DNA of 64,000 nt from an uncultured Acidobacteriota bacterium (GCA_963713825.1 CAVQNG010000001.1:288001-352000); one strand, 5' to 3'; shown: positions 2,866 to 63,342, counted from the first letter of the stretch. Notes: generated by a model not told the origin, from the sequence alone. Made by a program: numbers and translations.

Positions 2866-2876
2866 GGATTGATCTC

Positions 2877-3764
2877 ATGCGGAGCATGACGGGGTTCAGT
2901 CGGGCCTCTGGGGAGAATCAGCGATTGCGGCTGGAGGTGTCCATCCGGACTGTGAACCATCGTCACCTCGACATCACGGTCCGAGTTCCAGAGGAAATTC
3001 GCGAGTTCGAAAGTCCAGTTCGCAAAGCGGTGGCGGAAAAACTCACCCGAGGGCGAGTAGAAGTCCGGATCGATGTTCTCTACCTCGGTGGCGAAGTGCC
3101 GCAGGTAGAGATCGAGGACGATGTCGTGGCAGCCTTGCGACAGAGGATCGACGGGCTCTCTGCGAAGGGCTGGATAACGTCGGAGTTGAGCTTCATGGAT
3201 CTCATGAAGTTCCCAGGTGCGGTGCGGGCTTCGTCGGGTTCGGTGGAGTTCGGATCGGAGGACGCCGAGCTCTTGATCGAGACGGTCGGCAGGGCGGCAG
3301 AGGGAGTTGTGGTGGCCCGGCAGACGGAGGGAAACAGTCTCAAAGTCGTTCTCGAGGGGTTGGCGGCAGATCTGAGCGCAGTGGTGACTGCAGTAGAGGG
3401 AACCTGGGAGGATGTGACGGCAGACCTGCCCGAAAAGCTACGAGCCAGGGTGGAGGAGCTGCTGCAAGCCCCAACGCCGGCCCTGGACGAAAATCGGTTG
3501 GCGCAGGAGGTGGCCATACTGGTAGAACGCGGTGATGTTCGCGAGGAGCTGGACCGCCTGCGTTCGCATCTCGAGCATCTCCGTGAGCTGGTCGGACAAG
3601 AAGGCCAGGCGGTGGGAAAGCGTCTGGACTTTCTCGCTCAAGAGATCTTTCGAGAGCTCTCGACTTTGGCAGCGAAGTTCCGCGACCCTGCGACCGTTCA
3701 ACGGGTCATCGATGGCAAGTTGGTGTGCGAGCAGATTCGAGAACAGGTGCAGAACATCGAGTAG
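2877..3764 (+). CDS. yicC: YicC/YloC family endoribonuclease
   Basis: MRSMTGF start, DVREELDRL, GKRLDFLAQE, EQIREQVQNIE end; upstream of gmk. Confidence 0.93.
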   Translation: MRSMTGFSRASGENQRLRLEVSIRTVNHRHLDITVRVPEEIREFESPVRKAVAEKLTRGRVEVRIDVLYLGGEVPQVEIEDDVVAALRQRIDGLSAKGWITSELSFMDLMKFPGAVRASSGSVEFGSEDAELLIETVGRAAEGVVVARQTEGNSLKVVLEGLAADLSAVVTAVEGTWEDVTADLPEKLRARVEELLQAPTPALDENRLAQEVAILVERGDVREELDRLRSHLEHLRELVGQEGQAVGKRLDFLAQEIFRELSTLAAKFRDPATVQRVIDGKLVCEQIREQVQNIE

Positions 3765-3801
3765 GCTCGGCGCCACCAAGCGATAGGTGTTTCGATTTCA
3801 A

Positions 3802-4443
3802 ATGCGAAAAGGCGAGCTGTTTCTGTTGACATCGCCGTCGGGGACGGGCAAGGACACCCTCATCGATCGGGTCCTCGAGGACGAGATCGGTAGGAACGGA
3901 GCCCTGTGGCATTCGGTTAGCCACACCACCCGGCGGCCGCGAGGCAACGAAGTGGACGGTGAGCACTACCACTTCGTAGATCGTGCAACGTTCGAGGCGA
4001 TGGCCGCGAATGGAGAGTTCCTGGAGTTTGCCGAGTACAACGCGAACCTCTACGGCAGCTCGGTCCAAGAGGTAATGCCCAGGTTGGAGAGGGGGATGGA
4101 CGTCATCCTGGACATCGATGTCCAGGGCGCCGAGCAGATCCTGGAAACGATGCCGCAGGCCCACGGGATCCTGGTGCTGCCACCCTCCTACGAGACCCTC
4201 CGGGACCGGCTGCAGGGGAGAGGTCAGGAAGACGCTCTGCAGATTGCCGAACGACTGGCTGTATCTGTTTGGGAAATAGAGCGTTACGAGCTTTTTGGGT
4301 ATGCTATTATCAACGATGACTTGGACCTCGCCGTTTTGGCCCTGACGGCGATCATCCTGGAAAAGCGCCTGCGGCGAGACAAGCAGAGAGAGCGTATCGA
4401 GACTATCCTTCAGGGTTTTCGCTCGGCTGTTCAGGGCGAATAG
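3802..4443 (+). CDS. gmk: Guanylate kinase
   Basis: SPSGTGK, SHTTRRPRGNEVDGEHYHF, LDIDVQGA; yicC-gmk-rpoZ synteny. Confidence 0.96.
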   Translation: MRKGELFLLTSPSGTGKDTLIDRVLEDEIGRNGALWHSVSHTTRRPRGNEVDGEHYHFVDRATFEAMAANGEFLEFAEYNANLYGSSVQEVMPRLERGMDVILDIDVQGAEQILETMPQAHGILVLPPSYETLRDRLQGRGQEDALQIAERLAVSVWEIERYELFGYAIINDDLDLAVLALTAIILEKRLRRDKQRERIETILQGFRSAVQGE

Positions 4444-4491
4444 TCTTTCTGTGCATCGTCGTCAGTTCGGCTGTAAACGTCGAGGAGAGTT

Positions 4492-4743
4492 GTGAATATG
4501 GATCGAATGCCTGAGAGAATCGATAGCAAATTCCGGTTTGTGCTGCTGGCTGCTGAACGCGCCGAGCAGATGCTACGCGGTGCCCGACCGAAACTGGAGA
4601 TACCGGACAAGAAGGCTACCCGGATCGCGATGCACGAAATCGCCAATGATCTGGTGGAATGGGACTTCGGTCCGGCTCCTGAGCCCGTGATCGAAGAAGA
4701 GGAATCGGCTGAAGAAGCAGCGCCAGCTGAAGAGACGGAGTAG
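4492..4743 (+). CDS. rpoZ: RNA polymerase omega subunit
   Basis: SKFRFVLLAAERAEQ...IAMHEI; between gmk and coaBC. Confidence 0.93.
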   Translation: MNMDRMPERIDSKFRFVLLAAERAEQMLRGARPKLEIPDKKATRIAMHEIANDLVEWDFGPAPEPVIEEEESAEEAAPAEETE

Positions 4744-4834
4744 CAGCCTGTCTGAATCGACCCGAGCCGCTGGCCGCCAACTGGAGTGGGTTGGCTGCCG
4801 GTAGTTGGCGGTCGACCCCGACGAAAGGACGGAA

Positions 4835-6061
4835 ATGCCTGAGTCCCTGAACGTGCTTCTTGGAGTCAGTGGGGGCATCGCCGCATTCAAAGTTCCAGAG
4901 ATCGTGCGCAGCCTGCGGCTCAAGGGCCACGCGGTCCGCTGCGCCATGACCCACAGCGCTGCCGCCTTCGTGACACCGTTGACCTTGGAGGTTCTGACCG
5001 AGGCGCCGGTCTATCGCGAGGAGTACCTCGAGGCCAACAACAGCGGTGAGGAGCTCCACATCAGCGCTGCCCGTTGGGCCGACGTGATGTGCGTGGCTCC
5101 GGCCACCTGTAACACGCTGTCTCGGTTGGCACTAGGACTGGCTGACGATTTCCTGGCCACGACCTGCCTAGCATTCACCGGTCGACTCCTCGTCGCACCC
5201 GCCATGACAAGTGAGATGTGGGAGAAGTCGATCATTCAGGCTCATGTGGCCACCCTCCGAGAGCGGGGCGTCGAATTTGTCGGGCCGGTGGTGGGGCCGC
5301 TGGCGACTGGGGAAATCGGCATGGGGCGGATGGCCGAACCCGAAGAGATCGTTGCCGCAGTCGAAATGACGCCCAGGAGGGGAGACCTCGCGGGTAGGAC
5401 AGTGCTTGTAACGGCGGGCCCGACACAGGAACCGCTGGATCCCGTCCGATTTCTTTCCAACCGATCCAGCGGGAAGATGGGCTTCAGCTTGGCTGCAGAG
5501 GCGGCGAGCCGTGGGGCGAGGACTCTGTTGGTGTCGGGACCCGTTGCTCTGCCGACGCCCCGCGGCGTCGAGCGGTTCGATGTTGCCACGGCAGCCGAGA
5601 TGGCCGAGATGGTTGAACGGCTGGCACCGCAGGCCGAAGTCGTGATCATGGCGGCGGCTGTCGCCGACTTCAAGCCTCGAGAGGTCTTCGAAACGAAGCT
5701 CAAGAAGGGGGCCGGGCCACCGGATCTGAAGCTCGAGAGCACCCAGGATATCCTGAGCGCGCTTGGTGAGACGGCGCCGAACGCCCTGCGGATTGGCTTT
5801 GCCGCCGAGACCGGTGACCTCGAAGGCGAGGCGAAGCGAAAGCTGGATGAGAAGGGGGCGCACTGGATCATCGCCAACGATGTCTCGCGCAGTGATATCG
5901 GCTTCGAAGTCGACCTCAACGAGGTCACGGTCTATCGACGCGATCAGCCCCCGAAAACGATCCCTCGGCAGGCCAAGCGGCAGATCGCGAGACAGCTTTT
6001 CGATCTGGTGAGGCAGGAGTTCGAAGAGCTCGAAAGGTGGAAGGCCAGCCAGGGTGAATGA
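4835..6061 (+). CDS. coaBC: Phosphopantothenoylcysteine decarboxylase / phosphopantothenate-cysteine ligase
   Basis: GVSGGIAAFK, APATCN, APAM, TAGPTQEPLDPVRFLSNRSSGKMG, GFAAET. Confidence 0.96.
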   Translation: MPESLNVLLGVSGGIAAFKVPEIVRSLRLKGHAVRCAMTHSAAAFVTPLTLEVLTEAPVYREEYLEANNSGEELHISAARWADVMCVAPATCNTLSRLALGLADDFLATTCLAFTGRLLVAPAMTSEMWEKSIIQAHVATLRERGVEFVGPVVGPLATGEIGMGRMAEPEEIVAAVEMTPRRGDLAGRTVLVTAGPTQEPLDPVRFLSNRSSGKMGFSLAAEAASRGARTLLVSGPVALPTPRGVERFDVATAAEMAEMVERLAPQAEVVIMAAAVADFKPREVFETKLKKGAGPPDLKLESTQDILSALGETAPNALRIGFAAETGDLEGEAKRKLDEKGAHWIIANDVSRSDIGFEVDLNEVTVYRRDQPPKTIPRQAKRQIARQLFDLVRQEFEELERWKASQGE

Positions 6062-6755
6062 GCTCTTGGAGTACCTGCAGGAGATCGGCTTCGAAGATCT
6101 CTATCTGCCTAGAGCTGCAAGCGATTTGGCGACAGAGGACAAGGCGGCGGAGCGAGTGGCGTCGCCACCGCGGTCGGAGGGCGCTCTCGAGCGCCAGGCT
6201 CGCCTCGTGGGTCTCGAGGAGGAGGCGAGAGATTGCCAGCTCTGCAATCTGTGTCAGGGACGGCAAAAGGTCGTGTTTGGCAGCGGGGATCCGGACGCCG
6301 ACTTGATGTTCATCGGTGAAGGACCGGGTGCCGAGGAGGATCGGCAGGGACTGCCATTCGTAGGTCGTGCTGGGGAATTACTGACGAAGATCATCGAAGC
6401 CATCGGCTTGCAGCGCGAAGGTGTCTATATTGCCAATATCGTCAAGTGTCGCCCACCAGGAAACAGGGATCCAAAGCCCGATGAGGTGGCGCAGTGTCGG
6501 GCCTATCTGGAGCAGCAGATCGATCTGATCGAGCCCAAGATCATCGTTCTGTTGGGTCGCGTAGCGGCTCAGACCATGCTGGGCAACGACCTCACACTGG
6601 GAAGAATGAGGGATCAATGGCATCGCGTCCGGGAAATCGAGACGAGAGTGACCTACCATCCCGCAGCGCTGCTGCGCAATGCGTCATTCAAGCGACCGAC
6701 TTGGGAAGACATGCAGGTGGTACGTGACCGGCTCGCAGAAGTGTCGGCCAGATGA
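6054..6755 (+). CDS. Uracil-DNA glycosylase, family 4 (4Fe-4S)
   Basis: [39 protein letters not shown]. Confidence 0.93.
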
Positions 6756-6802
6756 ACCGCTTTCCGAGCAGGTGTCCAAACCGTCGCCGAGTGGCAAGCG
6801 GT

Positions 6803-6811
6803 TGTTACAAT
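6803..6811 (+). promoter_or_regulatory. Extended -10 element, likely leaderless transcript of the GT2 gene
   Basis: TG-t-TACAAT ends 8 nt before ATG 6820; no Shine-Dalgarno. Confidence 0.55.
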
Positions 6812-6819
6812 AGCCGATC

Positions 6820-7806
6820 ATGACCGTCGATTCGCTTCCGGCCTCGATAGAGGTCGCAGATCCAGAAGGCTACGAGCCCGAGGTGAGCATCATCGTTCCT
6901 GTGCTCAACGAGGCGGGGACGGTGTTGGAGCTGTCGCGCCGTGTAGCCGAAGTCATGGAGCGAATCGGGCGTCGGTTCGAGATCCTCTTCGTGGACGACG
7001 GGTCCTCCGATGAGACAAGACAGCGGGTCAAAGAGGCGCACGAGATCGACGATCGAGTCAAGCTCGTCAGCCTGCGACGAAATTTCGGCAAAGCCGCGGC
7101 CCTGTGCGCCGGCTTCGACCATTCGAGTGGCCAGATCCTCATCACCATGGATGGTGACCTTCAAGACGAGCCGGATGAGATTCCGCGCTTCCTCGAGAAG
7201 CTCGAGAGCGAGAACCTCGACCTGGTCTCTGGCTGGAAGCAACAGCGGCAGGATCCGGCATCGAAGCGCTATCCCTCGCGGCTGTTCAATTGGGTGACGA
7301 GAAAGCTGGCCAGTGTCGATCTGCACGACTTCAACTGTGGTTTCAAGGCCTATCGACGGGAGGTTCTGGACGAGATCGCCCTCTACGGCGAGTTGCACCG
7401 TTACATTCCCGTCCTGGCCAGCCGCCGCGGCTTCACTCTCGGCGAGCTGTCCGTGGTGCATCATCCCAGGGAGCATGGAACCAGCAAATACGGTTGGGAT
7501 CGTTACTACAAGGGACTTCTGGACCTGATTACGGTGCTGTTCATCACGAAGTACACTCGCCGGCCACTTCATCTGTTCGGCATGATCGGCCTGAGCTCAC
7601 TCTTTGTGGGTTTCGGAATCAATCTCTACCTGGCAATTCTCTGGCTGTCGGGTCAGACTTTGTCGAACCGGCCTTTACTGCTGCTGGGGATCCTCCTCAT
7701 GCTGCTCGGAATTCAGGTGCTCACGACTGGCCTGATCGGCGAGATGATCACGTTCAAGAACTTCAACCGCACCGACACCTACTCGGTCAAGGAGCGAGTG
7801 GAGTAG
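6820..7806 (+). CDS. GT2 polyprenol-phosphate glycosyltransferase (ArnC/GtrB-like)
   Basis: VDDGSSD, RNFGK, MDGDLQD, DFNCGFKAYRR, two C-terminal TM helices. Confidence 0.9.
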   Translation: MTVDSLPASIEVADPEGYEPEVSIIVPVLNEAGTVLELSRRVAEVMERIGRRFEILFVDDGSSDETRQRVKEAHEIDDRVKLVSLRRNFGKAAALCAGFDHSSGQILITMDGDLQDEPDEIPRFLEKLESENLDLVSGWKQQRQDPASKRYPSRLFNWVTRKLASVDLHDFNCGFKAYRREVLDEIALYGELHRYIPVLASRRGFTLGELSVVHHPREHGTSKYGWDRYYKGLLDLITVLFITKYTRRPLHLFGMIGLSSLFVGFGINLYLAILWLSGQTLSNRPLLLLGILLMLLGIQVLTTGLIGEMITFKNFNRTDTYSVKERVE

Positions 7807-7817
7807 GGAAGCTCGCA

Positions 7818-9074
7818 CTGAATCTCCTCTTCCTGACCCAGACCTACCCTCGCTTCGCGGGCGACACGGCAGGGCCCTTTATTCGGGACCTGGCGAGAGC
7901 TCTGGTTCGCGGCGGAGACCGCGTTACCGTTCTCACTCCGCACGCCGAGGGCGTGGCGCCTTCCTGGTCCGATGACGGAGTGGATGTAAAGAGCTTTCGC
8001 TACGCCCCGGAGCGCCTGGAAGTGTTGGGCTACGGCCGTAGCCTGAGCTCGGACGAGGCAGTTAGAGCTACCGCCGGTGCCGTCGCTCCGCTCTATGCGC
8101 TGGCAGCTCGGACGGCGGTGTCACGAGAGAGCGTTGCTGAGTCCTACGACCTGGTACACGCTCATTGGGTCGTGCCGAACGGAGTCGTGGCAGGACTTGC
8201 AAAACTGCGGGTCCCCCTGGCCGTGGGTTTGCACGGCAGCGATGTCTTCATGGCGGAAAAGGCGCTATTCAGGCCGTGGGTCAGGATGGCGCTCCAGAGA
8301 GCCTGTCTGCTAACGGGCTGCTCACCGGAGCTGGTGGAGCGCGTCTGCGAGTTGGGATTCGAGCGGTCACGGTCCGCGGTGATCCCGTACGGCGTCGATG
8401 TGGAACTCTTCAAACCCGACCCCGAGAGACGCGAGATCTGGCGTCAGAAGCTGGATCTGCCGCCCGACGCGGTGGTGGCGTTGGGCGTCGGTCGGATGGT
8501 GACGAAGAAGGGGTTCCACATCCTGATTCCGGTGCTGGCTGAGATTCTTGAACGGTTCCCCGATTTCCATCTCGTGCTTGCCGGTGGCGGTGATCGGCTC
8601 GAGGAGTTTCGGCAGAGCTCATCAGATTGGGCAGACCGGGTGCATTTCCCCGATGTCGTCCTGAGAGACACGCTACCCGATCTTTATCGAGCAGCAGATC
8701 TATTCGTTCTTCCTGCAGTGCACGATAGCAAAGGGAACGTCGATGGTCTGCCCAACGTCATCCTCGAGGGTATGGCGAGCGCCCTGCCGATTGTTGCTTC
8801 GGGCATCTCTGGTATTCCTTTGGCGGTAGCCGAAGGGGAGCAAGGACTGCTCGTAGAGGAGAATAATCCCGAACAGCTGTCCCGGGCTCTGACCCGGCTC
8901 CTCGAGTCCCCCTCGGAAAGAGCTCGTATGGGAGCAGCGGCTCGACGCAAGGCCACAGAGGAGCTCACATGGACTGTAGTAGCGGGGCGTTACCGCAAGG
9001 CATATGAGGCTGCCCTCGGATGGGACAATGACGGCTCCCAGCGGATCGTCAGCGGGGCTCCAACGAATCAGTGA
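7818..9074 (+). CDS. GT4 glycosyltransferase (probable CTG start)
   Basis: LLFLTQTYPRF, HAHW, HGSD, VIPYGVD, VGRMVTKKG, DGLPNVILEGMA; start inferred at CTG 7818 after the GT2 stop. Confidence 0.88.
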   Translation: MNLLFLTQTYPRFAGDTAGPFIRDLARALVRGGDRVTVLTPHAEGVAPSWSDDGVDVKSFRYAPERLEVLGYGRSLSSDEAVRATAGAVAPLYALAARTAVSRESVAESYDLVHAHWVVPNGVVAGLAKLRVPLAVGLHGSDVFMAEKALFRPWVRMALQRACLLTGCSPELVERVCELGFERSRSAVIPYGVDVELFKPDPERREIWRQKLDLPPDAVVALGVGRMVTKKGFHILIPVLAEILERFPDFHLVLAGGGDRLEEFRQSSSDWADRVHFPDVVLRDTLPDLYRAADLFVLPAVHDSKGNVDGLPNVILEGMASALPIVASGISGIPLAVAEGEQGLLVEENNPEQLSRALTRLLESPSERARMGAAARRKATEELTWTVVAGRYRKAYEAALGWDNDGSQRIVSGAPTNQ

Positions 9075-54296: not shown

Positions 54297-54373
54297 CGGG
54301 ACGTGGCGCAGCCTGGTAGCGCACCTGAATGGGGTTCAGGGGGTCGCGAGTTCAAATCTCGCCGTCCCGACCA
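54297..54373 (+). tRNA. tRNA-Pro(GGG)
   Basis: CGGGACGTGGCGCAGCCTGGTAGCGCA-CCTGA-ATGGGGT-TCAGG...GTTCAAATC...GTCCCGACCA. Confidence 0.97.
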
Positions 54374-54511: not shown

Positions 54512-54988
54512 CTACCCATCCTGCCCGTACTTCTCCAGCAGGGCCTGAAAGCGGGGGTGGTCGCGAAGGGGATCCCAGCGAGGTTCGCTCCGCAGTAGAG
54601 GTACCGATAGAGAACAGGGGATCGAGAGAAGATAATCGAGTCGATCCACCGCAAGACTCGTTTCACCCACCCAGGAATAGATCTCTGCGAGGTGCATGAC
54701 TTGAATGCACCCGATATAGGCGTCCTTCGCGACCGGCTGCAACTCCACCGCCTTCCTACCTGCTTGGATGGCCTCGGCCTTCACGGGGAGCCTACGATAC
54801 GGTCCTCTGAGAAGTACCTGCTTCTTGTTCAGCGGTGGCTTGAAACCGAGGCACGAGAGACCCACTTCGACCGAACCGATGTCGCATCCTGGCCCTTGTG
54901 GATGAATGATTCCTCGTTGATCGACACCTACGCTCCAGTCATCTGAAGGGATCACGTTGATGGCGGGGCTCTGTACCAGAGGCCGATG
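54512..54988 (-). pseudogene. Mosaic remnant: choice-of-anchor-Q motif, PxKF-like segment and TPR-protein C-terminus
   Basis: SPAINVIP...DQRG...PQGPGCDIGSVE, then GFKPPL...RLPVK, then AGRKAVEL...EPRWDPLRDHPRFQALL; no in-frame start ahead of the first motif. Confidence 0.65.
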
Positions 54989-56237: not shown

Positions 56238-57065
56238 CTACTGCACGATGATCGACCAGGCGGAAAGATCGCCTGACTCGAAGCTGTCGACAAGGACAGG
56301 GCGGCTGGCGAAGCGCTGCGCTTGCACCACATCAGACCAGGCCGGCAGGTTGAACGCGCCCTGGCTCTCCCACACCACGACGAAGTTTCCCTCCGGATCG
56401 ACCGAGGCTACCTTGGGCGACCCTTGCGCGTAGGTGGTGTAGGAGTTGACCTGGAACTGACCTCCTACGGGCCTCCCGCAAGCATCGAAAAACTGCGCCT
56501 GAACGCTGAGGGTGGTGGTATCCGTACCGTACGACCCTTCACTCTCCCACGCCACGATGAAATTGCCCATGGCGTCTATACCGACTGCGGGCTTGTATTG
56601 ATCTTCGGTCGTGTAGGAGTTGACCTGGAATTGGCCGCCCACAGGCGTGTCACTGGCGTCGAAGCGTTGCCCCTGGATACTCCACCGAGAGGTATCCGTG
56701 CCGTACGAGCCATAGCTCTCCCAAACCACGACGAAGTCTCCCTGTGGGCCGACTGCCACCTCAGGCCAGTCCTGGTTGGAAAAAGTGTAGGTATTGACCT
56801 GGAAATCAATCCCTTTGGGCGTGCCATCGGTTTCGAAGCGCCGCGCCTGAATGCTGCTGGAAGAGGTATCGGTGCCGTACCCGCCGGTGCTGTACCAGAC
56901 CACGACGAAATCGCCCTGCTCGTCCGCGGCCACTTCGGCCTGCTTCTGTGAACCGGTGGTGAAGGCGTTGATCTGGAATTCTCCGCCCAGGGGGACCACT
57001 TCTTGTGCCGGCGCCATCCCTCCAAACAGCAACAGTCCAACCACACACGTCGTCCGCAGCTTCAT
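56238..57065 (-). CDS. Secreted repeat protein (4 x ~58 aa) with C-terminal DSFESGD..WS tag
   Basis: Signal peptide, SD gggagg, repeated GGQFQVNSYT...GNFVVVWES...QRF. Confidence 0.85.
   Translation of the reverse strand: MKLRTTCVVGLLLFGGMAPAQEVVPLGGEFQINAFTTGSQKQAEVAADEQGDFVVVWYSTGGYGTDTSSSSIQARRFETDGTPKGIDFQVNTYTFSNQDWPEVAVGPQGDFVVVWESYGSYGTDTSRWSIQGQRFDASDTPVGGQFQVNSYTTEDQYKPAVGIDAMGNFIVAWESEGSYGTDTTTLSVQAQFFDACGRPVGGQFQVNSYTTYAQGSPKVASVDPEGNFVVVWESQGAFNLPAWSDVVQAQRFASRPVLVDSFESGDLSAWSIIVQ
56304..56987 (-). repeat. Four tandem ~174-bp coding repeats (beta-propeller-like blades)
   Basis: Unit GxxFQ[IV]Nx[FY]T-x3-Q-x2-PxV...G[DN]F[IV]VxW.S.G...Q[AG]xxF repeated four times; boundaries approximate. 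Confidence 0.85.
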
Positions 57066-57104
57066 GGATGCCTCCCTTCCATCGAAAGTCGACTCCTGCG
57101 CCAC

Positions 57105-57198
57105 CCTTCGGAAGCCCGGCGGTCCTTAGGTCCTGGTCGGAGATGAGGACCCGTGGCTTTGTGCGCTCGACCTTGCGGTCGGCTTACCTTTGTCGAGG
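57105..57198 (-). ncRNA. Cyclic di-GMP-I (GEMM-I) riboswitch
   Basis: AAAGGUAAGCCGACC-GCAA-GGUCGAGCGCACAAAGCCACGGGUCCU...AGGACCGCCGGGCUUCCGAA in the 5' UTR of the 57065 gene; GNRA loop and G20/A47/C92 equivalents present. Confidence 0.82.
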
Positions 57199-57324
57199 TA
57201 TACCCACGAATATCACGAGATGGCTCTCGGCACACCACCCGCAGGGGTAGGCCACGCACCAGGCGCACTCTCTCCCCTGTGGGGAAGGGAAGGGAGGGGG
57301 AGGGGAGGGTCCTATGGAACGGAT

Positions 57325-57879
57325 CTACGCAGGAACCTCGGCAGGTTTGTTCAGCAGCTCGTCGACGGTCGTCACGGTGGCTCCGTAGGCCATCTTCAGG
57401 TAGTCGAGGGCTTCGTCTTCGTCAATGCCGTCGAATGCACAGACAGCGTCGCGCGGAATGGTGATGTCGTACCCCCGAATAAGAGCGCCGTAGGAGGTGT
57501 GACGTACGCAGATGTGGGTGTGCTGACCGGTGACGACGACCTCCTGGACACCCAGGGCCTCGAGCTGCTCGTGGAGGCCGGTGCCATCGAAGGCCCCATA
57601 GACCCGCTTTGGGGATAGCCATTCATTCTCTCCCTGCCGGGGTTCGAGCGCGCCGATGACCCGTGCGCCGGGATCGCCCTCCATGGCGTGCTCTCCCCAG
57701 ACCTTCAGCTCTGGGTCGTCCGGCCGATGGGCATCGTTGGAGAAGACGATGGCCCAGCCATGATCGCGTGCATGATCGAGCAGCCGTCGTAGCGGGTCGA
57801 TGATTCGTTCGGCCCGGGGATTGGCCAGCTTGCCATCGACAAAGTCAACCAGCATATCGACCACGATCAGTGCTTTCAT
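57325..57879 (-). CDS. Isochorismatase/nicotinamidase family cysteine hydrolase
   Basis: ALIVVDMLVDF, DAH, WGEHA, KRVYGAF, GQHTHICV. Confidence 0.92.
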   Translation of the reverse strand: MKALIVVDMLVDFVDGKLANPRAERIIDPLRRLLDHARDHGWAIVFSNDAHRPDDPELKVWGEHAMEGDPGARVIGALEPRQGENEWLSPKRVYGAFDGTGLHEQLEALGVQEVVVTGQHTHICVRHTSYGALIRGYDITIPRDAVCAFDGIDEDEALDYLKMAYGATVTTVDELLNKPAEVPA

Positions 57880-58035
57880 ATCGAATTCCTCCCGTCGAGA
57901 GGCGGAGTATAGCGGCTCCGGGAGTGAGTCAGTTTGGGGGCGCTGCCGCGCTGTCGCAAACGAACCGGGATAGGACTTTGGTGAAACGACGGACTTCACT
58001 GCCAGAGCGCGCGTCCACTGCTACCCTGGAAACCG

Positions 58036-59451
58036 ATGTCGACTCGATCCGCTGCGGTTCTGATTCAGGTTTGTCTTTTCGTACTTCTTGCGGAGTCTGC
58101 TACCGGACAGGAGGTCGTGTTCAGCGACGGCTTCGAGTGGGCAGATACCAGCGATTGGTCTCTGGTGGAACCGCCGAGATGCGACAGGATCGAGTCGTTC
58201 GATCGAGGCCTACAGCCAACGACGGAGCTGCACGTCTCGACAGAAGGTGACGACGTCTCGGGCGATGGCTCAATCGGCAGTCCCTACGCAACCATCGAGA
58301 AGGCAGTCGGTGAAGCAGTGCCGGGAACGGCGGTGCGCATTCATTCCGGTACCTACAGTGGTGGTGTCTACCTGGCGGCGGTCTCCGGCACGCTCGACGC
58401 GCCGATCTGGATCGGTGGAGCAGTGGGGGAGACCCGACCGAAGCTGGTCGGAGGAGCGACGGGCCTTCATCTGGTTCGAGCCAAGTACGTGGTGGTTCAC
58501 GATCTGGAAGTCGAGGGTGCCAGTGCCAACGGCATCAACTGCGATGATGGTGGCGACTACAACGATCCGCTGGCCTCGCATCACCTGACCTTTCGCGGCC
58601 TGTCCATCCACGATATCGGAGCTGGAGGCAACGAAGACTGCCTCAAGCTCTCTGGTCTGGATGACTACTGGGTTCTGTTCTCGGACTTCGAGCGCTGTGG
58701 AGGAGGCCAGTCTGGAAGCGGGATCGATCATGTCGGATGTCATCAGGGACTGATTGCTCGCAATCGATTTCAGAACCTGTCCGCCAACGCCGTGCAGTCG
58801 AAAGGTGGAAGTCAGGACATCGAGATTCGCTGGAACCACTTTCTCGAATCCGGGGCTCGCAGCCTGAATCTTGGCGGCAGCACGGGGTTCACCTACTTCA
58901 GGCCTCCCCTGTCCACCAGCGCTCTCAACGCCGAAGCGCGAGACATTCGAGTCATCGCCAATGTGATCGAAGGTTCTGACGCCTCGGCGGCCTATGTCGG
59001 CTGCGTTGGCTGTCTGGTGGCGAACAACACGCTGGTCGATCCGCACAACTGGATTCTCCGCATTCTCCAGGAAACGACCAGCAGTGGCTCTTATGGCTTC
59101 GAGGAGTGCCGAGACGGTGTCTTCGTCAATAACCTCGTCTATTTCGAGCGCGGTGACCTGTCGACCTACGTCAACGTTGGTCCGGACACGGCTCCGGATA
59201 GCTTCACCTTTGCGAACAACCTTTGGTATGCCTGGGACAATCCGGCGCAATCGGAGCCCAATCTGCCAGCACCCGAGGCCAACGGCATCTATGGGCAGGA
59301 TCCCGAGCTCGATTCGCAGCTGCGAATCGTCACGAGCAGTCCGGCCGCTGGTGCAGGGACGGGTACTGTCTGGACGTGGGGTGACCTCGACGGTAGGTGT
59401 TACTCGGGACCTCCCAGCATAGGCGCTTTCGAAGCTCGACCTGTCCATTGA
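58036..59451 (+). CDS. Secreted right-handed beta-helix protein with N-terminal DGFE..D..WS tag
   Basis: Signal peptide; GDGSIGSPYATIEKA (DUF1565-like), beta-helix repeats, C-terminal SPAAGAG...DLDG...PSIGAFE. Confidence 0.85.
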   Translation: MSTRSAAVLIQVCLFVLLAESATGQEVVFSDGFEWADTSDWSLVEPPRCDRIESFDRGLQPTTELHVSTEGDDVSGDGSIGSPYATIEKAVGEAVPGTAVRIHSGTYSGGVYLAAVSGTLDAPIWIGGAVGETRPKLVGGATGLHLVRAKYVVVHDLEVEGASANGINCDDGGDYNDPLASHHLTFRGLSIHDIGAGGNEDCLKLSGLDDYWVLFSDFERCGGGQSGSGIDHVGCHQGLIARNRFQNLSANAVQSKGGSQDIEIRWNHFLESGARSLNLGGSTGFTYFRPPLSTSALNAEARDIRVIANVIEGSDASAAYVGCVGCLVANNTLVDPHNWILRILQETTSSGSYGFEECRDGVFVNNLVYFERGDLSTYVNVGPDTAPDSFTFANNLWYAWDNPAQSEPNLPAPEANGIYGQDPELDSQLRIVTSSPAAGAGTGTVWTWGDLDGRCYSGPPSIGAFEARPVH

Positions 59452-59550
59452 AACGTCGATGTTGCACTCCGCAGTGAGGCGTTGCGACGTAGTAGCCTTG
59501 GGCTGCCGGTGGTTGCACCGACAGCCGGTTCTGCGGGTAGGTGTCTGCGA

Positions 59551-60348
59551 ATGAAGATACTTCGAGGACTTCGGAGTTGGATCGCATGGCAGAAAGTGCC
59601 AGTCGACGATCTGTTGATCAAAAGGCCCGCCAAGGAGGCGGCGATCGCGACCACGTTCGCGGTCCTCTACGTCCTGGCCGCCGTGGTGACAGGCCTGCTA
59701 ATTCGTTGGAAACCGCTGCCTCTGCTGGGCTCAGCTAGCTTCATTTACGATTTCTGGTACTCCATCGTTTTCAAGATTCTGCTCCTTTTGACGATCCCAT
59801 TGCTCTGGTACTTCCGGCAGGGCTATGCACTCCGAGATCTGTCACCGAGTTGGAAGTTGAGTCCTAGGAGCGTTACTGTGGTCACGTTCGCCTTCTTCGC
59901 GGGGCTCGGCGTCAATCTTCTGCAGGGCAGACTGGACCTGGTCATCGAGGGGGCCGCCAACTTCTCAGCTACGGAAAGAGGGGTTCGTCTCACGGCAGGT
60001 GTGGTGCTCCCTTTCCTGATTGCAGGCTTTCCCGAGGAGTTCGTCTACAGGGGCATCCTCCAGACTCGGCTGGAAAAGGTCGGTGGGAGACTTGCTGCCA
60101 TCTCGATCTCGGTCCTGCTGTTCACGGCCTGGCATATCCCGACCCGCTATCTGCTGGCCCAGGGCGTCGAGGGGTCGGCCGGCGACCTCTCGTCTGTCGT
60201 TCTGGGCACGGGGGTACCCGTCGCGATCGTCGGTCTCGTCTTTGCGCTGCTGTGGGATCGCTATCGGAATCTACCGGCGCTGATCGCGGCTCATTGGGGA
60301 GTGGATGTGCTGCCGGCGATCATTGCCTTTCTGGGAATCGACTACTAG
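59551..60348 (+). CDS. CPBP (CAAX/Abi) family intramembrane glutamic endopeptidase
   Basis: EEFVYRG, FTAWH, AAHWGVD; about 7-8 TM helices. Confidence 0.92.
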   Translation: MKILRGLRSWIAWQKVPVDDLLIKRPAKEAAIATTFAVLYVLAAVVTGLLIRWKPLPLLGSASFIYDFWYSIVFKILLLLTIPLLWYFRQGYALRDLSPSWKLSPRSVTVVTFAFFAGLGVNLLQGRLDLVIEGAANFSATERGVRLTAGVVLPFLIAGFPEEFVYRGILQTRLEKVGGRLAAISISVLLFTAWHIPTRYLLAQGVEGSAGDLSSVVLGTGVPVAIVGLVFALLWDRYRNLPALIAAHWGVDVLPAIIAFLGIDY

Positions 60349-60352
60349 ACGG

Positions 60353-60790
60353 CTAGCCGCATGAGACGTTGTTCCAGAAGGCCTCGCCTGTATACCGACT
60401 CGCCGCCTTGGCGGTCTCGGAGGTAATACAGCAGTCCTGGATAAGGAACGTCTCACCCGGCTGGACGACTATTGAAGTCGGCAGCGACCAGTCGACCGTT
60501 TCCAGCAGGGTGTCTCCTTGAAATGCCCGAACCTTGCCTCGGAGGTTGTTGCCGCAACCGGTGCCGGTGTTGCGATAGCTCTGCGAATAGGAGCACTCGA
60601 GTCCGAGCCCGGAACAGAGGCCGATCTCGACCCCGCCATTGGCTACCACGTTGGCCGCGGTTACTTCCGAGGGTGGCTCGGTCGGGCCACCCCCACCCCC
60701 TCCAGATCCCACGCCCTCGCCGCAGGCGGACAGGACGAGCAGCAAGACAAGGGGCAAGAGCCTCATAGGCTTGATCACCAGAACTCCCAT
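60353..60790 (-). CDS. Small Cys-rich lipoprotein
   Basis: Lipobox LSAC, Gly-rich linker, six further Cys; alternative start 60766. Confidence 0.75.
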   Translation of the reverse strand: MGVLVIKPMRLLPLVLLLVLSACGEGVGSGGGGGGPTEPPSEVTAANVVANGGVEIGLCSGLGLECSYSQSYRNTGTGCGNNLRGKVRAFQGDTLLETVDWSLPTSIVVQPGETFLIQDCCITSETAKAASRYTGEAFWNNVSCG

Positions 60791-60873
60791 AAATCAGCGG
60801 CGACGATCGAGAAACCGCACCTCAAGTGTAACGCTCCAGAGGGTGCGAATCGAGAGCAGGAGCTCGCCCGCTG

Positions 60874-61164
60874 CTAGGGCTCGACGAAGGCGATCCCAGC
60901 ACGGAAGATCGGGATGGAATCGCCATCTGTGGTGCGCTTCGTTTCGGAGAGGCGACACCAGCGGACCCTACCCTGCACGGTTGCGTTGGATCTCCCGATT
61001 CCGAAGGTGAACGGTCGTTCCTCGAGGACCTTCAAGGGGCTGTGCGACTCGACGCCTGCACCGAACGCCGTGATGTCGACAATGCGGCCCGAGATGGGGC
61101 TCTTCAACGCGAATCCGATCGCCGGCTCGCGGTCGAGGCGTCGCTTCTCGGGCCGGTCGGTCAT
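60874..61164 (-). CDS. Single-domain PilZ protein
   Basis: RxxxR (RRLDR), DITAFG (DxSxxG variant), GRVRW, AGIAF. Confidence 0.85.
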   Translation of the reverse strand: MTDRPEKRRLDREPAIGFALKSPISGRIVDITAFGAGVESHSPLKVLEERPFTFGIGRSNATVQGRVRWCRLSETKRTTDGDSIPIFRAGIAFVEP

Positions 61165-61358
61165 TCTCTTCTTTCGATGAGATTCCGTGACACCTTGTCG
61201 CATGAGTCCGTCGCTTTCTCGTCGGTGCAGACGGAGGCACTTCATGGAAGAGCCGGCTGATTGCCTGTTTGTAGCAGATTGCCATTCGGCTGGACAACAC
61301 CCTCGGGGGTGGCGCGGCACCCCTCCGATCGGGCGGGAAACACATAGCGATATGGCTT

Positions 61359-62015
61359 TTAGGGGATTTGACTCGACCAGGCCGCTGTGTCACCCGACTC
61401 GAATCCGTCCTTGAACAGGATCTCTGGGCAGTCGACGACGGCACGAATCGCGAAATCGCCGCCGACCCCTAGAGCGCAGGCGTCGAACCAGAAACCAGGG
61501 GGAATGGCGTAGAGGCCGTTCTTCACTGCTTGGCAACCATCGATATCGGTGACAAGGCTCGGTCCTGTAACCGGAGGCGCCTCGAAGAAACGAAAGTCCA
61601 CGACGAGAGTCTCGCCAGTCATCACCGCAATTGGTGGAACGACCGGGTACTCGTTGAAGAAGCCGTCGTTGAGCGCGGGGGCGGGGAGCTTCGCCAACTG
61701 GGATCCGGGGGTGGGAAAGGCTCCAATTTCAGAGATGGTGATCGAGTCTCCCAGGGTTTGACCGGAACCACCAGTTACCGACATCCAGAGGACCTGGACC
61801 GCCGTGAGATTTCCTTCGCAGGTCGAGGTGAGCCAGGCCGCCGCCCTTTCGCTGGCCGCGAAGCCCGCCTGAATCGCTACATTGCTGAAATCTTCGATGG
61901 AATCGTTCTTGAGCACTGCGGCGTCGAGTCGAGCCGAGCCAGTCCACAGGCAGGCCAGGATGGCAAGAAGGGAACGTCGACCGACGCTGAGTCGGATGCC
62001 TCGTCGCTGTCTCAT
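61359..62015 (-). CDS. Secreted beta-rich protein with C-terminal DGFESGD..WS tag
   Basis: SD aaggag, signal peptide, four Cys in mature part, ends ILFKDGFESGDTAAWSSQIP. Confidence 0.82.
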   Translation of the reverse strand: MRQRRGIRLSVGRRSLLAILACLWTGSARLDAAVLKNDSIEDFSNVAIQAGFAASERAAAWLTSTCEGNLTAVQVLWMSVTGGSGQTLGDSITISEIGAFPTPGSQLAKLPAPALNDGFFNEYPVVPPIAVMTGETLVVDFRFFEAPPVTGPSLVTDIDGCQAVKNGLYAIPPGFWFDACALGVGGDFAIRAVVDCPEILFKDGFESGDTAAWSSQIP

Positions 62016-62118
62016 GAGCCAGCTGCTCCTTTTTCGGAGTCTGACTGACGAGTCTAGCCAAGGGCGAGCGCGCGCGCCGCGACATTCGTCACAGCTCTCT
62101 GAGAGCTCGGGTGCTCTG

Positions 62119-63342
62119 CTACTGGACCTCGTCGGACCAAGCCCAGGTATCGCCCCACTCGAACCCATCCGCGAGGAAGATGAAGGTGTTGACCAGCACT
62201 CCGACATCCTCGGAATCCTGATTGGCGGTGACCAGATCGTCGGACCCGTTGCCGTCGAGGTCAGCGGCGGCGAGTCCAACCGGCTTCTCTAGAACTCTAA
62301 CTAGGAGGGGCGGGTTGAAGAAGCCGGCGCCATCACCCAACAGGTTCCCCATTCGATTGGTTTCGAGGTTCGTGAGTGTTAGATCGACGGAGCCATTGAG
62401 GTCGAGGTCCTTGGCAATCAAGGCTCTGGGATTACCTGTGTCGTTGATCGGGTGGTTCTCATCGGTTCTGAAATGTTCGGGTGCGCCAAACTGGCCAGCG
62501 CCGAGATTCATGAACGTGGTAGCGAAATCTCCTGCCGGCCCCGTCGTCACCACCGCAACATCGACCTTCTGGTCACCGTCGAGGTCACCTGCTGCAACGC
62601 CCCCGCTCGGGCTCAAGTCGGTGCCAACAGCGAGACTCGAATCGAGTCCGAGGATGCCGCTGCCGTCGTTGAGGAGGATATCGACCATACCGGTGTCGCT
62701 GCTGGCGACGGCAAGGTCCAAGCTACCTTCGCCGTCGAAGTCGGACAACGCCAGTCCCCGTGGACCCGAGCCAACGGCGTATGCAACCCCAGAGGACAAC
62801 ACTCCCGTGGTGTTGAACAAGACTGAGACGTCGGAGGAACCTCGATTCGAGGTTACGATATCCACAAAGCCATTGCCGTCGATGTCTCCCGCTGCGATGT
62901 CACTTGGCAGAGTACCTCCCACTCCGGTGGTTGCTCCGAGCGACAGAACGCCACCAGTATTCGTCAGGACTTGCACGTCGTTCATCCCCGTCAGCGTGAC
63001 CACGAGATCGAGGTCCTCGTCGTTGTCGATATCGACAGCTACGACAGAATGCGGTGCACTACCTCCGGCTAGTGGGATGTCGAGGGCTGGATCGAATTGT
63101 GCGCCCGCCCTGGAGTTCATCAGAATGGCGAGTTTGTCATCACCTTGAACCGCGACCGCAATATCGGTCCATCGGTCGGCGTCGAAATCAGCGAGGGCCA
63201 CGCCGGTTGGATTGGAACCTGCTGCAAAATAGTAGGGGCTGCACCAGCGTCCGGAGCAAAGGACCGGAGTGGATTGGGCAGCTCCGCCCAGGAATGCTGC
63301 TGATGCCGTGATTCCGACTGCAAGTGCTACCGATAGCTTCAT
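62119..63342 (-). CDS. Secreted FG-GAP/VCBS seven-bladed beta-propeller with C-terminal DGFEWGD..WS tag
   Basis: Signal peptide; seven D[FIL]Dx[DNE]xxxD[ILV] Ca-binding repeats; ends IFLADGFEWGDTWAWSDEVQ. Confidence 0.9.
   Translation of the reverse strand: MKLSVALAVGITASAAFLGGAAQSTPVLCSGRWCSPYYFAAGSNPTGVALADFDADRWTDIAVAVQGDDKLAILMNSRAGAQFDPALDIPLAGGSAPHSVVAVDIDNDEDLDLVVTLTGMNDVQVLTNTGGVLSLGATTGVGGTLPSDIAAGDIDGNGFVDIVTSNRGSSDVSVLFNTTGVLSSGVAYAVGSGPRGLALSDFDGEGSLDLAVASSDTGMVDILLNDGSGILGLDSSLAVGTDLSPSGGVAAGDLDGDQKVDVAVVTTGPAGDFATTFMNLGAGQFGAPEHFRTDENHPINDTGNPRALIAKDLDLNGSVDLTLTNLETNRMGNLLGDGAGFFNPPLLVRVLEKPVGLAAADLDGNGSDDLVTANQDSEDVGVLVNTFIFLADGFEWGDTWAWSDEVQ

Follow-up and report, generated by a model that had tools for sequence, protein, structure and literature searches.

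A terminal hairpin tag and a separately encoded headless jelly-roll protein: a putative docking system for exported proteins in Acidobacteriota

Introduction

Why should exported proteins that have nothing else in common share one short peptide at a chain end? The question is raised by four genes, A to D, in the window, the whole stretch of 64,000 nucleotides analysed here. Their host genome (G000) is that of a Thermoanaerobaculia-type Acidobacteriota, a sediment bacterium. A first-pass annotation of this DNA took the shared peptide for a candidate undescribed surface-sorting or anchoring tag, possibly a docking peptide that donates a beta-strand to a surface scaffold. We followed this proposal through the genome, through 401 Acidobacteriota genomes and through structural models.

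Results

The tag in the window and in the genome

Re-translation of the coordinates confirmed the motif in 4/4 window proteins. The features are as follows.

56238..57065, minus strand: gene A, encoding a 275-aa exported protein with FQVNTYT-type repeats and a C-terminal tag; start (MKLRTTCVV) and stop verified
56241..56306, minus strand: tag of A, SRPVLVDSFESGDLSAWSIIVQ then stop; HMM score 33.7, E 7e-8; the profile ends where the ORF ends
58036..59451, plus strand: gene B, encoding a 471-aa exported protein, tagged at the mature N-terminus
58036-58107, plus strand: signal peptide of B, 24 aa, with the tag directly after it
58108..58173, plus strand: tag of B, QEVVFSDGFEWADTSDWSLVEP then PP; HMM E 2.6e-7, ORF residues 43-63
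61359..62015, minus strand: gene C, encoding a 218-aa exported protein, tagged at the C-terminus; the final 30 residues of the protein are the first row of alignment A1
61362..61427, minus strand: tag of C, PEILFKDGFESGDTAAWSSQIP then stop; HMM E 7.5e-10, at the last residue
62119..63342, minus strand: gene D, encoding a 407-aa exported protein of FG-GAP/VCBS repeats (FG-GAP_3, E 2e-26), tagged at the C-terminus
62122..62187, minus strand: tag of D, TFIFLADGFEWGDTWAWSDEVQ then stop; HMM E 1.4e-7, at the last residue

No Pfam family was found in A (L006) at E<=1e-4 or in C in the Pfam scan, and the weak Beta_helix and DUF1565 matches of B both lie below the Pfam cut-off.

The consensus of the ~20-residue tag is phi-phi-F-x-D-G-F-E-S-G-D-x-x-x-W-S-x-x-x-[P/Q/E], an acidic and aromatic peptide in which Glu and Trp are invariant across the tail alignment. 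A 22-position HMM built from copies in G000 was searched against the six-frame ORFs (E<0.01), as the first-pass annotation had proposed, and returned 79 tagged ORFs, a lower bound because at least two further divergent terminal copies score under the threshold. The control, all 78,117 ORFs reversed, gave 0 matches at the same E<0.01. The strict pattern DGFE[ST]GD-x3-W has 45 matches in the G000 DNA and, read backwards, 0 across all 401 genomes. The tag is terminal in nearly every case: 73/79 copies are C-terminal, of which 60 stop exactly at the last profile residue, five residues past the Trp, and 13 have 1-6 residues more. Five copies lie on the N-terminal side (three right after the signal peptide of full-size proteins, two in short ORFs), and one is internal, in an RHS protein.

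The spacing proved less general than first supposed. Four residues separate WS from the chain end in the three C-terminal copies of the window (A, C and D), as had been noted, but as a rule this is lineage-specific: other sampled genomes have 0-6 residues after the tag Trp, and in the sampled proteins of G005 the Trp is the last or the next-to-last residue.

At the DNA level, third codon positions vary freely, Ser is written with TCN as well as AGY codons, and conservation is lost in the next 80 nt downstream (27% identity). Selection therefore acts on the peptide and not on a DNA repeat. The tag is matched by no Pfam or NCBIfam model, and literature searches by motif and by concept returned nothing relevant to it, in keeping with its description as undescribed.

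The tagged genes are dispersed in G000. Their products fall into at least 20 unrelated Pfam architectures in a scan of 70 tagged proteins, including proteases (M36, M43, M23, reprolysin, trypsin-like), GDSL lipases, beta-helix and FG-GAP proteins, an MtrC-like multihaem cytochrome and a Tat-signal DUF1501 protein; three LamG_3 proteins carry the tag immediately after their jelly-roll domain. Some copies sit in short fragmentary ORFs or on duplicated small contigs. Signal peptides were predicted for 47/63 tagged and 1409/3838 untagged genes by a hydrophobicity heuristic, which is crude and flags 37% of the untagged genes too. This passenger set fits docking outside the cytoplasm.

The tag is homologous to the first hairpin of a whole domain

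Searched against 1.84 billion representative proteins, a profile of 52 tag tails (A1) matched 8095 at E<=1e-3. In the top multi-copy matches inspected (P0001, P0002, P0003 and P0007), each motif copy opens a repeat of ~190 aa that ends in ..FDD[VA].. and aligns with PF14099 (Polysacc_lyase) from the first profile position onwards, with 23.6-24.4 bits, below the cut-off of 29.9. Profile comparison thus identifies the tag as the first beta-hairpin of what is, in other proteins, a ~190-residue ConA-like jelly-roll domain of the lectin/polysaccharide-lyase type; the homology of tag and hairpin is established at the computational level. The first-pass annotation had counted against its own proposal the case that the motif is just the first strand of a larger domain. 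This is true of other proteins and genomes, and it is what explains the tag in G000.

How the tag relates to the whole domain can be followed in G131, a genome of the same family, where large proteins have, at the C-terminus, a hairpin that runs on into the remainder of the domain (hereafter the body). The best G000 homologue of the G131 FG-GAP protein L078 is window protein D, which ends after the hairpin; the alignment reaches residue 403 of the 407 of D, where L078 has the hairpin and a complete body. Likewise, three PQQ-dehydrogenase proteins of G131 have as their best G000 homologue a 423-aa protein that also ends after the hairpin. By these comparisons the G000 exoproteins keep the hairpin only, and the domain is split over two genes. 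Whole C-terminal ConA-like modules (CBM/lectin-type; PF14099, LamG-like clan) are the evolutionary parent: hairpin and body form one domain in G131 and in P0001-P0007, often at the C-terminus of enzymes, whereas in G000 only the first hairpin is on the enzymes.

The same homologues might suggest that the tags are functionless relics of truncated C-terminal domains, or artefacts of assembly or gene calling, a reading to which the fragmentary ORFs and duplicated contigs also lend something. We regard it as very unlikely. The 60 of 79 copies that finish at an identical profile position make independent decay improbable; the amino acids are strongly conserved while synonymous sites are free; four other genomes, which belong to different families, are in the same state; and N-terminal copies are kept between G000 and G119 orthologues.

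A single headless body gene in G000

An HMM of the ~190-aa repeat without the motif was used to look for the rest of the domain. Its only small secreted match in G000 lies outside the window.

Contig C25:782668-783348: headless body gene, encoding a 226-aa secreted protein

The protein has a signal peptide (..AMASA, followed by NALDV), no hairpin, and the C-terminus VYLDEYVSTR. Besides its own record it has 19 relatives of the same length (201-238 aa, 41-88% identity), all hypothetical and from Acidobacteriota wherever named. No Pfam family was found in it at E<=0.01, and it does not reach curated cut-offs such as those of PF14099 and PF13385. The AF2 model (pLDDT 89, pTM 0.86) has 13 strands in a predicted ConA-like jelly roll. 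Foldseek matched this model to PL7, PL18 and PL20 lyases and to lectin-like subdomains (E 5e-7 to 1e-5, TM 0.44-0.60), so that the predicted two-sheet fold resembles solved members of the ConA-like superfamily.

G000 has one body gene for ~80 tagged clients, unlinked to the tagged genes. No recognisable anchor was found in the G000 body: it has no Pfam or NCBIfam family, no lipobox and no SLH domain.

Tag and body are co-distributed

We surveyed 401 Acidobacteriota genomes, scoring at most seven body candidates in each. The counts below come from a body profile (A3) that includes bodies from hairpin-bearing proteins, and related genomes in them are not independent.

Strict tag pattern present (17 genomes): body found in 9, not found in 8
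Strict tag pattern absent (384 genomes): body found in 3, not found in 381

Each of the genomes with at least 12 tags (G000, G119, G005, G165 and G276) has exactly one body match, 5/5, in a protein with a signal peptide and no hairpin, which stands alone in four and is fused to an SLH domain in G276. The bodies of G119, G005 and G276 were missed by a single-protein query and found by the profile only, with E values of 2e-10 to 5e-21; the G119 match spans the profile in two pieces. G282, one of the three genomes with a body only, does carry a divergent tag, and G002 and G093 have weak body matches and no tag by the A1 profile. Computationally, these surveys show both that the body exists and that it is distributed with the tag.

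The 8/17 pattern-positive genomes without a body match all have five pattern hits or fewer. They could be taken to mean that the hairpin works alone, by associating with itself or binding glycans or metals and so making proteins adhere to one another or to the matrix, or by capping the passenger fold. An acidic, aromatic peptide with invariant Glu and Trp would suit such a role, as would the tag that directly follows a jelly-roll domain in the three LamG_3 proteins. However, the 1-5 hits in the body-less genomes may be heads of ordinary whole domains, and the diversity of the passengers makes a common role in cis unlikely. A lone 20-residue hairpin would probably not fold or bind, and the A1 profile has no match among PDB chain sequences. 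An independent function of the hairpin is, in our judgement, unlikely.

In a model, the tag fits the position of the missing strand

The complex was modelled from body residues 32-226 and 30-aa tag tails, with window protein C as the first row. The three ipSAE values were 0.71, 0.75 and 0.82 (median 0.75), against 0.02 for the best of three controls. In a benchmark, such a score was reached by 116/157 solved complexes and 2/215 mismatched pairs; here tag and body are two halves of one fold, and likeness to solved whole domains can raise scores. The runs had at least 96% of their contacts in common, with a partner pLDDT of 76-78.

In the model, tag residues 11-17 pair with the last strand of the body (220-225), and the invariant Trp contacts body residues 69-71. 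The interface is enriched in body columns with full or at least 90% conservation (15/39, 6.8 expected). The body lacks the hairpin that its whole-domain homologues have, and the model seats the tag by the last strand; the control, a complete cis domain modelled from five alignment rows, was of low confidence (mean pLDDT 63, hairpin region <50). The modelling shows that the tag would fit the missing-strand position, and says nothing of actual binding.

Genes around the body and a possible reader of the tag

In 6/6 loci examined, the body gene sits among polysaccharide genes, with glycosyltransferase and sulfatase-family genes around it and, in some loci, sulfotransferase, methyltransferase or Wzy-type genes. 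The G276 body gene adjoins a polysaccharide pyruvyl-transferase gene, and its product alone among the body orthologues has an SLH domain above the Pfam cut-off (PF00395, E 2e-11, 43.9 bits against 20.8). Tag and body are operon-coupled in G282: the first 4 nt of the body gene overlap a gene whose product is tagged at the N-terminus. Between the G005 body gene and a tagged gene ~2.2 kb downstream of it lie two paralogues of the tagged gene.

Could the tag be read by another machine? It might be a sorting or processing signal for an outer-membrane translocon, a peptidase or a transpeptidase, with the body as its evolutionary source and not its receptor. A candidate reader would be the Rce1-like/CPBP intramembrane protease encoded beside gene B, between tagged genes of the window (PF02517, E 3.5e-18); some C-terminal signals are processed by CPBP-family enzymes. 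In favour of this reading, exported proteins carry the tag strictly at a chain end, as with known sorting signals, and G000 has a single body gene, whose product lacks an anchor, for ~80 clients. We find it doubtful all the same. No candidate machine co-varies with the tag, and tagged genes in G000 have no recurrent neighbour. G000 has ten Rce1-like genes, three of them within 5 kb of a tagged ORF (~1.5 expected), and the family is present in 11/14 control genomes and is therefore not specific. N-terminal tags are unusual for C-terminal sorting signals. This reading also leaves unexplained that the body co-occurs with the tag, that it is fused to SLH in G276 and shares an operon with a tagged gene in G282, and that the interface is modelled with confidence.

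Discussion

We propose, with a probability of about 0.6, that the tag and the body form an undescribed docking system for exoproteins that works by strand complementation. Beta-strand donation, one of the options raised at the outset, is the reading we favour: it accords with the hairpin homology, with the separate, co-occurring headless body and with the predicted strand pairing. The suggested surface scaffold finds a possible counterpart in the SLH anchor fused to the G276 body orthologue. The stoichiometry of one body gene to ~80 clients and the missing anchor of the G000 body count against docking.

Several known systems resemble this one in part. LPXTG/sortase, PEP-CTERM/exosortase, GlyGly-CTERM/rhombosortase and MYXO-CTERM signals are also short conserved C-terminal signatures on unrelated exported proteins. 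Such tripartite signals, including that of myxosortase, need a transmembrane helix and a basic tail past the motif; the few residues after the tag Trp leave no room for either, as the first-pass annotation had recognised, and the tag also occurs at N-termini. At E<=1, the four window proteins gave no match to an NCBIfam sorting-signal model. The T9SS C-terminal domain (PF18962/TIGR04183) is likewise a C-terminal element common to unrelated exoproteins of one phylum and tied to surface attachment. It is a folded beta-sandwich of 70-100 residues that is cut by a sortase-like protease, and its Pfam model has 75 positions against the 20 residues of the tag. No terminal Por_Secre_tail match occurs in the 70 tagged proteins scanned with Pfam; the sole match is sub-threshold and internal (residues 278-319 of the 1306-aa L019).

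Closer in logic is the dockerin-cohesin pair, in which a short terminal module on unrelated secreted enzymes docks non-covalently to a separately encoded receptor, as we propose here. Cellulosome scaffoldins are often SLH-anchored, and the SLH wall anchor of the G276 receptor orthologue parallels that of anchoring scaffoldins. There is no relation in sequence or fold: a dockerin is a duplicated Ca-binding helix module of ~70 aa, whereas the tag is a single ~20-aa beta-hairpin, and the putative receptor is an incomplete ConA-like jelly roll in place of a complete cohesin sandwich. Binding here would complete a fold, where dockerin and cohesin join two folded domains. Pfam scans of the tagged proteins and the body found no dockerin or cohesin family.

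Donor-strand complementation in chaperone-usher pili also completes, in trans, a domain that lacks an edge strand with a segment of another polypeptide, as our model predicts here. Those Ig-like pilins form polymers of pilins, linked by an N-terminal extension and aided by a chaperone and an usher. The body is not an Ig-like pilin; it is a predicted ConA-like jelly roll, and ~80 unrelated donors would share one small acceptor protein.

In G000, ~80 proteins exported by Sec or Tat carry the detached first hairpin of the domain at a chain end, and the remainder is encoded once, as the separate secreted 226-aa headless body. If the proposed docking is right, the hairpin would, after export, insert beside the exposed C-terminal strand of the body and complete the jelly roll in trans. 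We infer that this binding would take place in the cell, in the periplasm, at the wall or on the outer surface, and that its purpose may be retention by polysaccharide. Each tagged protein would in this way gain a lectin-like module, which may keep it on the envelope or within exopolysaccharide made by the cell itself.

Tagged proteins of the window

All four secreted proteins reported in the first-pass annotation were found as claimed, with the motif (core DGFESGD-x3-WS, within a hairpin peptide of about 20 residues) at the C-terminus in A, C and D and behind the signal peptide in B. Re-translation placed the gene B motif immediately after a 24-residue signal peptide. Pfam assigned the gene D product to the FG-GAP repeat proteins and gave weak beta-helix matches only for the gene B product, while no Pfam family matched the products of genes A and C. 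The features of this part of the window are as follows.

54297-54373, + strand: tRNA-Pro(GGG), an ordinary feature of the window
54512-54955, - strand: 147-aa ORF containing VDQRGIIHPQGPGCDIGSVEV, adjoining tRNA-Pro(GGG)
56238-57065, - strand: tagged gene A, stop codon 56238-56240
58036-59451, + strand: tagged gene B
59482-60348, + strand: gene for an intramembrane protease of the Rce1-like/CPBP type (PF02517, E 3.5e-18), lying between B and C
61359-62015, - strand: tagged gene C, stop codon 61359-61361
62119-63342, - strand: tagged gene D, stop codon 62119-62121

A MerR regulator, an isochorismatase and a TPR protein are also encoded in this region and, like the tRNA and the protease, are ordinary features. 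On contig C34, a short ORF has a segment like VDQRGIIHPQGPGCDIGSVEV immediately before its tag. The 147-aa ORF of the window may be the remnant of a tagged gene beside the tRNA. We considered the Rce1-like protease as a tag-processing enzyme and rejected it: G000, the source genome, has 10 such genes, 3 of them within 5 kb of a tagged ORF against about 1.5 expected, which is no specific association.

The tag across the genome

The G000 assembly comprises 5.42 Mb in 38 contigs. A loose regular expression found 59 tag copies, and the genome-wide motif HMM scan that the first-pass annotation had proposed, using an HMM built from these copies, retrieved 79 six-frame ORFs at E<0.01, nearly all with a terminal tag; this count includes duplicated pairs on contigs C14/C38, C13/C15 and C1/C24, where identical or near-identical tagged genes lie beside the same neighbours, indicating an assembly with duplicated or collapsed regions. 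The same HMM matched none of 78,117 reversed ORFs. The tag ended at the exact last residue in 60 of the 79 ORFs and was followed by 1-6 extra residues in 13; the others were three full-size proteins whose tag follows directly on the signal peptide, two short ORFs and one internal copy. This last, the only clearly internal tag, occupies residues 1311-1329 of a 1600-aa RHS-repeat protein (L069, G000:C35:14180-18982), 271 residues before its C-terminus.

Alignment of 52 tails showed invariant Glu and Trp, with conservation of 90% or more for Asp, Gly, Phe and Gly; the final tag residue was Pro (33), Gln (20) or Glu (7). In the tag DNA, third codon positions carried little information, Ser was drawn from both codon families and the downstream DNA was unrelated, from which it follows that conservation acts on the peptide. 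A mobile DNA cassette supplying the last codons was ruled out by the unconserved third codon positions and downstream 80 nt. The tagged genes are dispersed in G000 and mostly solitary, and no conserved neighbours were seen around them. In a separate observation, TAG was the stop codon after 41 of the 60 exactly terminal tags, compared with 38% of 4130 untagged genes (Fisher p 3e-6, with paralogues that are not independent). The excess might come from a tag-plus-stop unit passed down by common descent, or from codon context.

Passengers and their export

Pfam families were recognized in 44 of 70 tagged proteins of at least 100 aa. They included FG-GAP, beta-helix/NosD, CarboxypepD_reg, LamG_3 and GDSL lipase domains, peptidases (M36, M43, M23, reprolysin and trypsin-like), Calx-beta/BACON, RCC1 and C-type lectin domains, and DUF362. 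Most N-termini of tagged proteins resemble signal peptides; a crude heuristic scored 47 of 63 tagged and 1409 of 3838 untagged genes as positive, and is too permissive for an export rate to be quoted. One tagged DUF1501 protein (L002, G000:C1:105866-107239) has an N-terminus of the twin-arginine type (TRRGFI), so pre-folded Tat-exported proteins appear to be clients too. A further client, L021 (G000:C3:904611-906626), ends in the tag; it is a multihaem cytochrome of the MtrC/MtrF type and has a Big_9 domain. Relatives of MtrC-like cytochromes act at the cell surface, and L021 may be a surface-displayed electron-transfer protein.

Distribution of the tag among Acidobacteriota

A strict DNA pattern for DGFE[ST]GD-x3-W had matches in 17 of 401 Acidobacteriota genomes, and none in any of the 401 when read backwards. 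Five genomes were rich in the tag, and the other 12 positive genomes had 1-5 matches apiece.

Strict pattern matches in the five tag-rich genomes
G000, own genome: 45
G119, same genus: 38
G005, same order: 74
G165, same class: 66
G276, same order: 12

The pattern was absent from close relatives, for example from one genome of the same family (G314) and from nine genomes of family f4. Among 21 copies sampled from the four other rich genomes, 19 were C-terminal. In these copies the Trp was followed by 4-5 residues in G119 and G165, 0-1 in G005 and 1-6 in G276. The earlier claim that the stop lies 4 residues past WS therefore holds for A, C and D but not as a general rule: tail length varies by lineage, and the unit ends at Trp. 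Judging from loci L112-L116, the G005 lineage has trimmed a tail that G000, G119 and G165 kept.

The tag as part of a larger domain

A profile built from 52 tails, with window protein C as first row, matched 8095 representative proteins at E<=1e-3, a count that contains some noise, such as the high-ranking false positive P0005, a 2229-aa low-complexity repeat protein (..EVLFRDGFQPSSF..). Among the best 150 rows, 58 proteins were single-copy and 52 of these 58 had the match at the last residue; many were short metagenome fragments. The top rows were multi-copy and internal, and in the four that were read (P0001, P0002, P0003 and P0007) every copy opens a repeat of about 190 residues ending in ..FDD[VA]... 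This repeat gave sub-threshold matches to PF14099 Polysacc_lyase, from profile position 1, and to CBM_4_9. For the first-pass annotation, a motif that was simply the first strand of a larger known domain would have spoken against the sorting or anchoring reading; this is partly the case, in other proteins only, and in G000 nothing follows the hairpin.

That the tag is without an existing model held up, as neither Pfam nor NCBIfam has one on the four window proteins, nor has Pfam on the 70 tagged proteins. The tail profile had no match among PDB sequences at E<=10, and literature searches by motif and by concept, covering titles and the opening of abstracts, returned no description of the tag or of the remainder of the domain, here called the body. 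A signal read by a sorting machine is one alternative reading of a short terminal tag, and it fits fewer observations than docking on a separate body; the tag qualifies neither as a T9SS CTD nor as a tripartite sorting signal.

A secreted body protein without the hairpin

We searched the 4204-gene call of G000 with an HMM of the ~190-aa repeat from which the motif columns had been removed. Two proteins matched: L038, a tagged passenger that itself contains a complete jelly roll, and a headless body encoded outside the window.

C25:782668-783348 of G000: headless body, 226 aa, signal peptide cleaved before N32, no hairpin
L072 (G000:C25:774001-793000), positions 2862-8431: three Peptidase_S74 paralogues directly upstream of the body gene

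The C-terminus of the body, VYLDEYVSTR, corresponds to the last strand of the domain. Besides its own record, we found 19 relatives, 201-238 aa long and 41-88% identical to it; all are hypothetical proteins, from Acidobacteriota where named. A relative with 85% identity is encoded on a contig whose title gives a Thermoanaerobaculia MAG. Sixteen aligned members share the signal-peptide position and the same terminal R, and none has the hairpin. The AF2 model of the mature body was confident (pLDDT 89, pTM 0.86), and Foldseek grouped it with ConA-like jelly rolls, a likeness of fold only; neither Pfam nor NCBIfam matched the G000 body. The idea that a headless receptor in G000 comes from LamG_3 (PF13385) was considered and rejected: four of the six LamG_3 matches are passengers that end in the tag or in a divergent form of it.

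Only four longer proteins with a fused body were found, each a PQQ-dehydrogenase with the whole domain. In G131, a genome of the same family with 4 pattern matches, FG-GAP and PQQ-dehydrogenase proteins end in hairpin and body joined without a break. For the G131 FG-GAP protein the best G000 homologue is window protein D, aligned up to its residue 403 of 407, and for the three G131 dehydrogenases it is a 423-aa protein ending in ..VFTGGFESGGTSEWD-stop, a divergent tag below HMM detection. Thus, the same passengers carry the whole or the split domain depending on the genome. G131 also has, on contig C118, a 321-aa ORF (L099/L080) that is secreted, body-like and without an N-terminal hairpin, its body interrupted by an insert with a degenerate LGDGFET segment.

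Co-occurrence and gene context of the body

Searching 49 genomes with one body protein as query gave matches in only 5, and G119, G005 and G276 were not among these. A 12-row profile that included bodies from hairpin-bearing proteins detected the body in 9 of the 49. Each of the five tag-rich genomes is in this set, with a single match apiece, and none of the 32 tag-free relatives is. The body is stand-alone, secreted and without hairpin in G119, G005, G165 and G000; that of G276 likewise has no hairpin and runs on into an SLH domain. Over the 401 genomes, 9 had tag and body, 8 the tag only, 3 the body only and 381 neither, related genomes not being independent. One 'body only' genome, G282, does have a divergent tag; it opens the mature chain of a 304-aa protein, and the stop of that protein's gene overlaps the body-gene start by 4 nt. 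G002 and G093 stay exceptions, with a weak body match and no tag by the tail profile. Autonomous action of the hairpin, or tags that are relics, would be further readings of these patterns, and both fit fewer observations than docking on the body does.

In all six loci inspected (G000, G119, G165, G005, G176 and G276) the body gene lies amid polysaccharide genes, including those of glycosyltransferases and the sulfatase family; sulfatase-family genes flank it in five of the six genomes, and some loci also have sulfotransferase, methyltransferase, Wzy-type or asparagine-synthase genes. In G276 it adjoins a polysaccharide pyruvyl-transferase gene fused to glycosyltransferases. The three paralogues upstream of it in G000 are fibre-like secreted proteins of 557, 520 and 611 aa; Peptidase_S74 is the intramolecular-chaperone domain of fibre and spike proteins. 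In G005, a tagged PD40/GEVED protein is encoded about 2.2 kb downstream of the body gene, with two paralogues between. A locus search with a further alignment (A2) gave two genome and four metagenome loci, with no tagged neighbour in any.

Modelled complex of tag and body

We modelled body residues 32-226 (16-row alignment) together with 52 aligned tails of 30 residues, headed by that of window protein C. The ipSAE values were 0.71, 0.75 and 0.82, against 0.02 for the best of three controls; 116 of 157 solved complexes reach this ipSAE mark, as do 2 of 215 mismatched pairs. The partner had a pLDDT of 76-78, and the runs agreed on at least 96% of contacts. In the model, tag residues 11-17 pair with the last body strand (220-225) and the Trp touches body residues 69-71. 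The interface includes the last residues of the tag and the first of the body (32-34), as expected if the chain had been cut there, and is enriched in conserved body columns (invariant or at least 90% conserved), at 15 of 39 against 6.8 expected. Because halves of one fold can pass through likeness to solved whole folds, the model supports fit, not binding. An AF2 control model of the whole domain in one chain had low confidence.

A proposed split jelly-roll docking system

Taken together, a split jelly-roll docking system is the best-supported explanation of the tag on computational evidence: the terminal hairpin of exported proteins would complete a separately secreted body by strand complementation. 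We favour the view that the completed module would retain its clients on envelope polysaccharide, on three grounds: the body gene lies among polysaccharide genes, the G276 body is fused to an SLH domain, and an MtrC-like cytochrome is among the clients. One body gene would serve about 80 clients, and the G000 body has no recognized anchor.

The nearest analogue in function is the dockerin-cohesin pair, to which the tag and body do not belong, and the nearest in principle is donor-strand complementation in pili; a 2026 preprint reportedly describes donor-strand exchange in a Gram-positive pilus, a distant analogue. The most far-reaching reading is that Thermoanaerobaculia have a natural, proteome-wide 'tag and catcher', in which one split jelly-roll lectin gene would supply a single secreted body, open to completion by any of about 80 enzymes, adhesins and cytochromes that bear the 20-residue first hairpin. 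This would give modular enzyme display on the cell's own polysaccharide, cellulosome-like but through strand complementation, and possibly a small, genetically encodable pair for non-covalent protein coupling. We put this at a little under even odds (about 0.45).

Soils and sediments are rich in Acidobacteriota, whose ways of exporting and positioning their many hydrolases are poorly known. If the reading is true, exoproteins would be localized by a principle not yet described, a gene-level domain split with the hairpin as address, on about 2% of the proteome, and one receptor body. Thousands of 'hypothetical' C-terminal tails would be accounted for, and tag and body could each be modelled in Pfam/NCBIfam. 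The compact natural tag-receptor pair is a candidate protein-engineering tool, and the tag offers a handle to predict the surface-displayed secretome of uncultured lineages. How diderms outside the Bacteroidota retain their exoenzymes would become testable with two small recombinant proteins.
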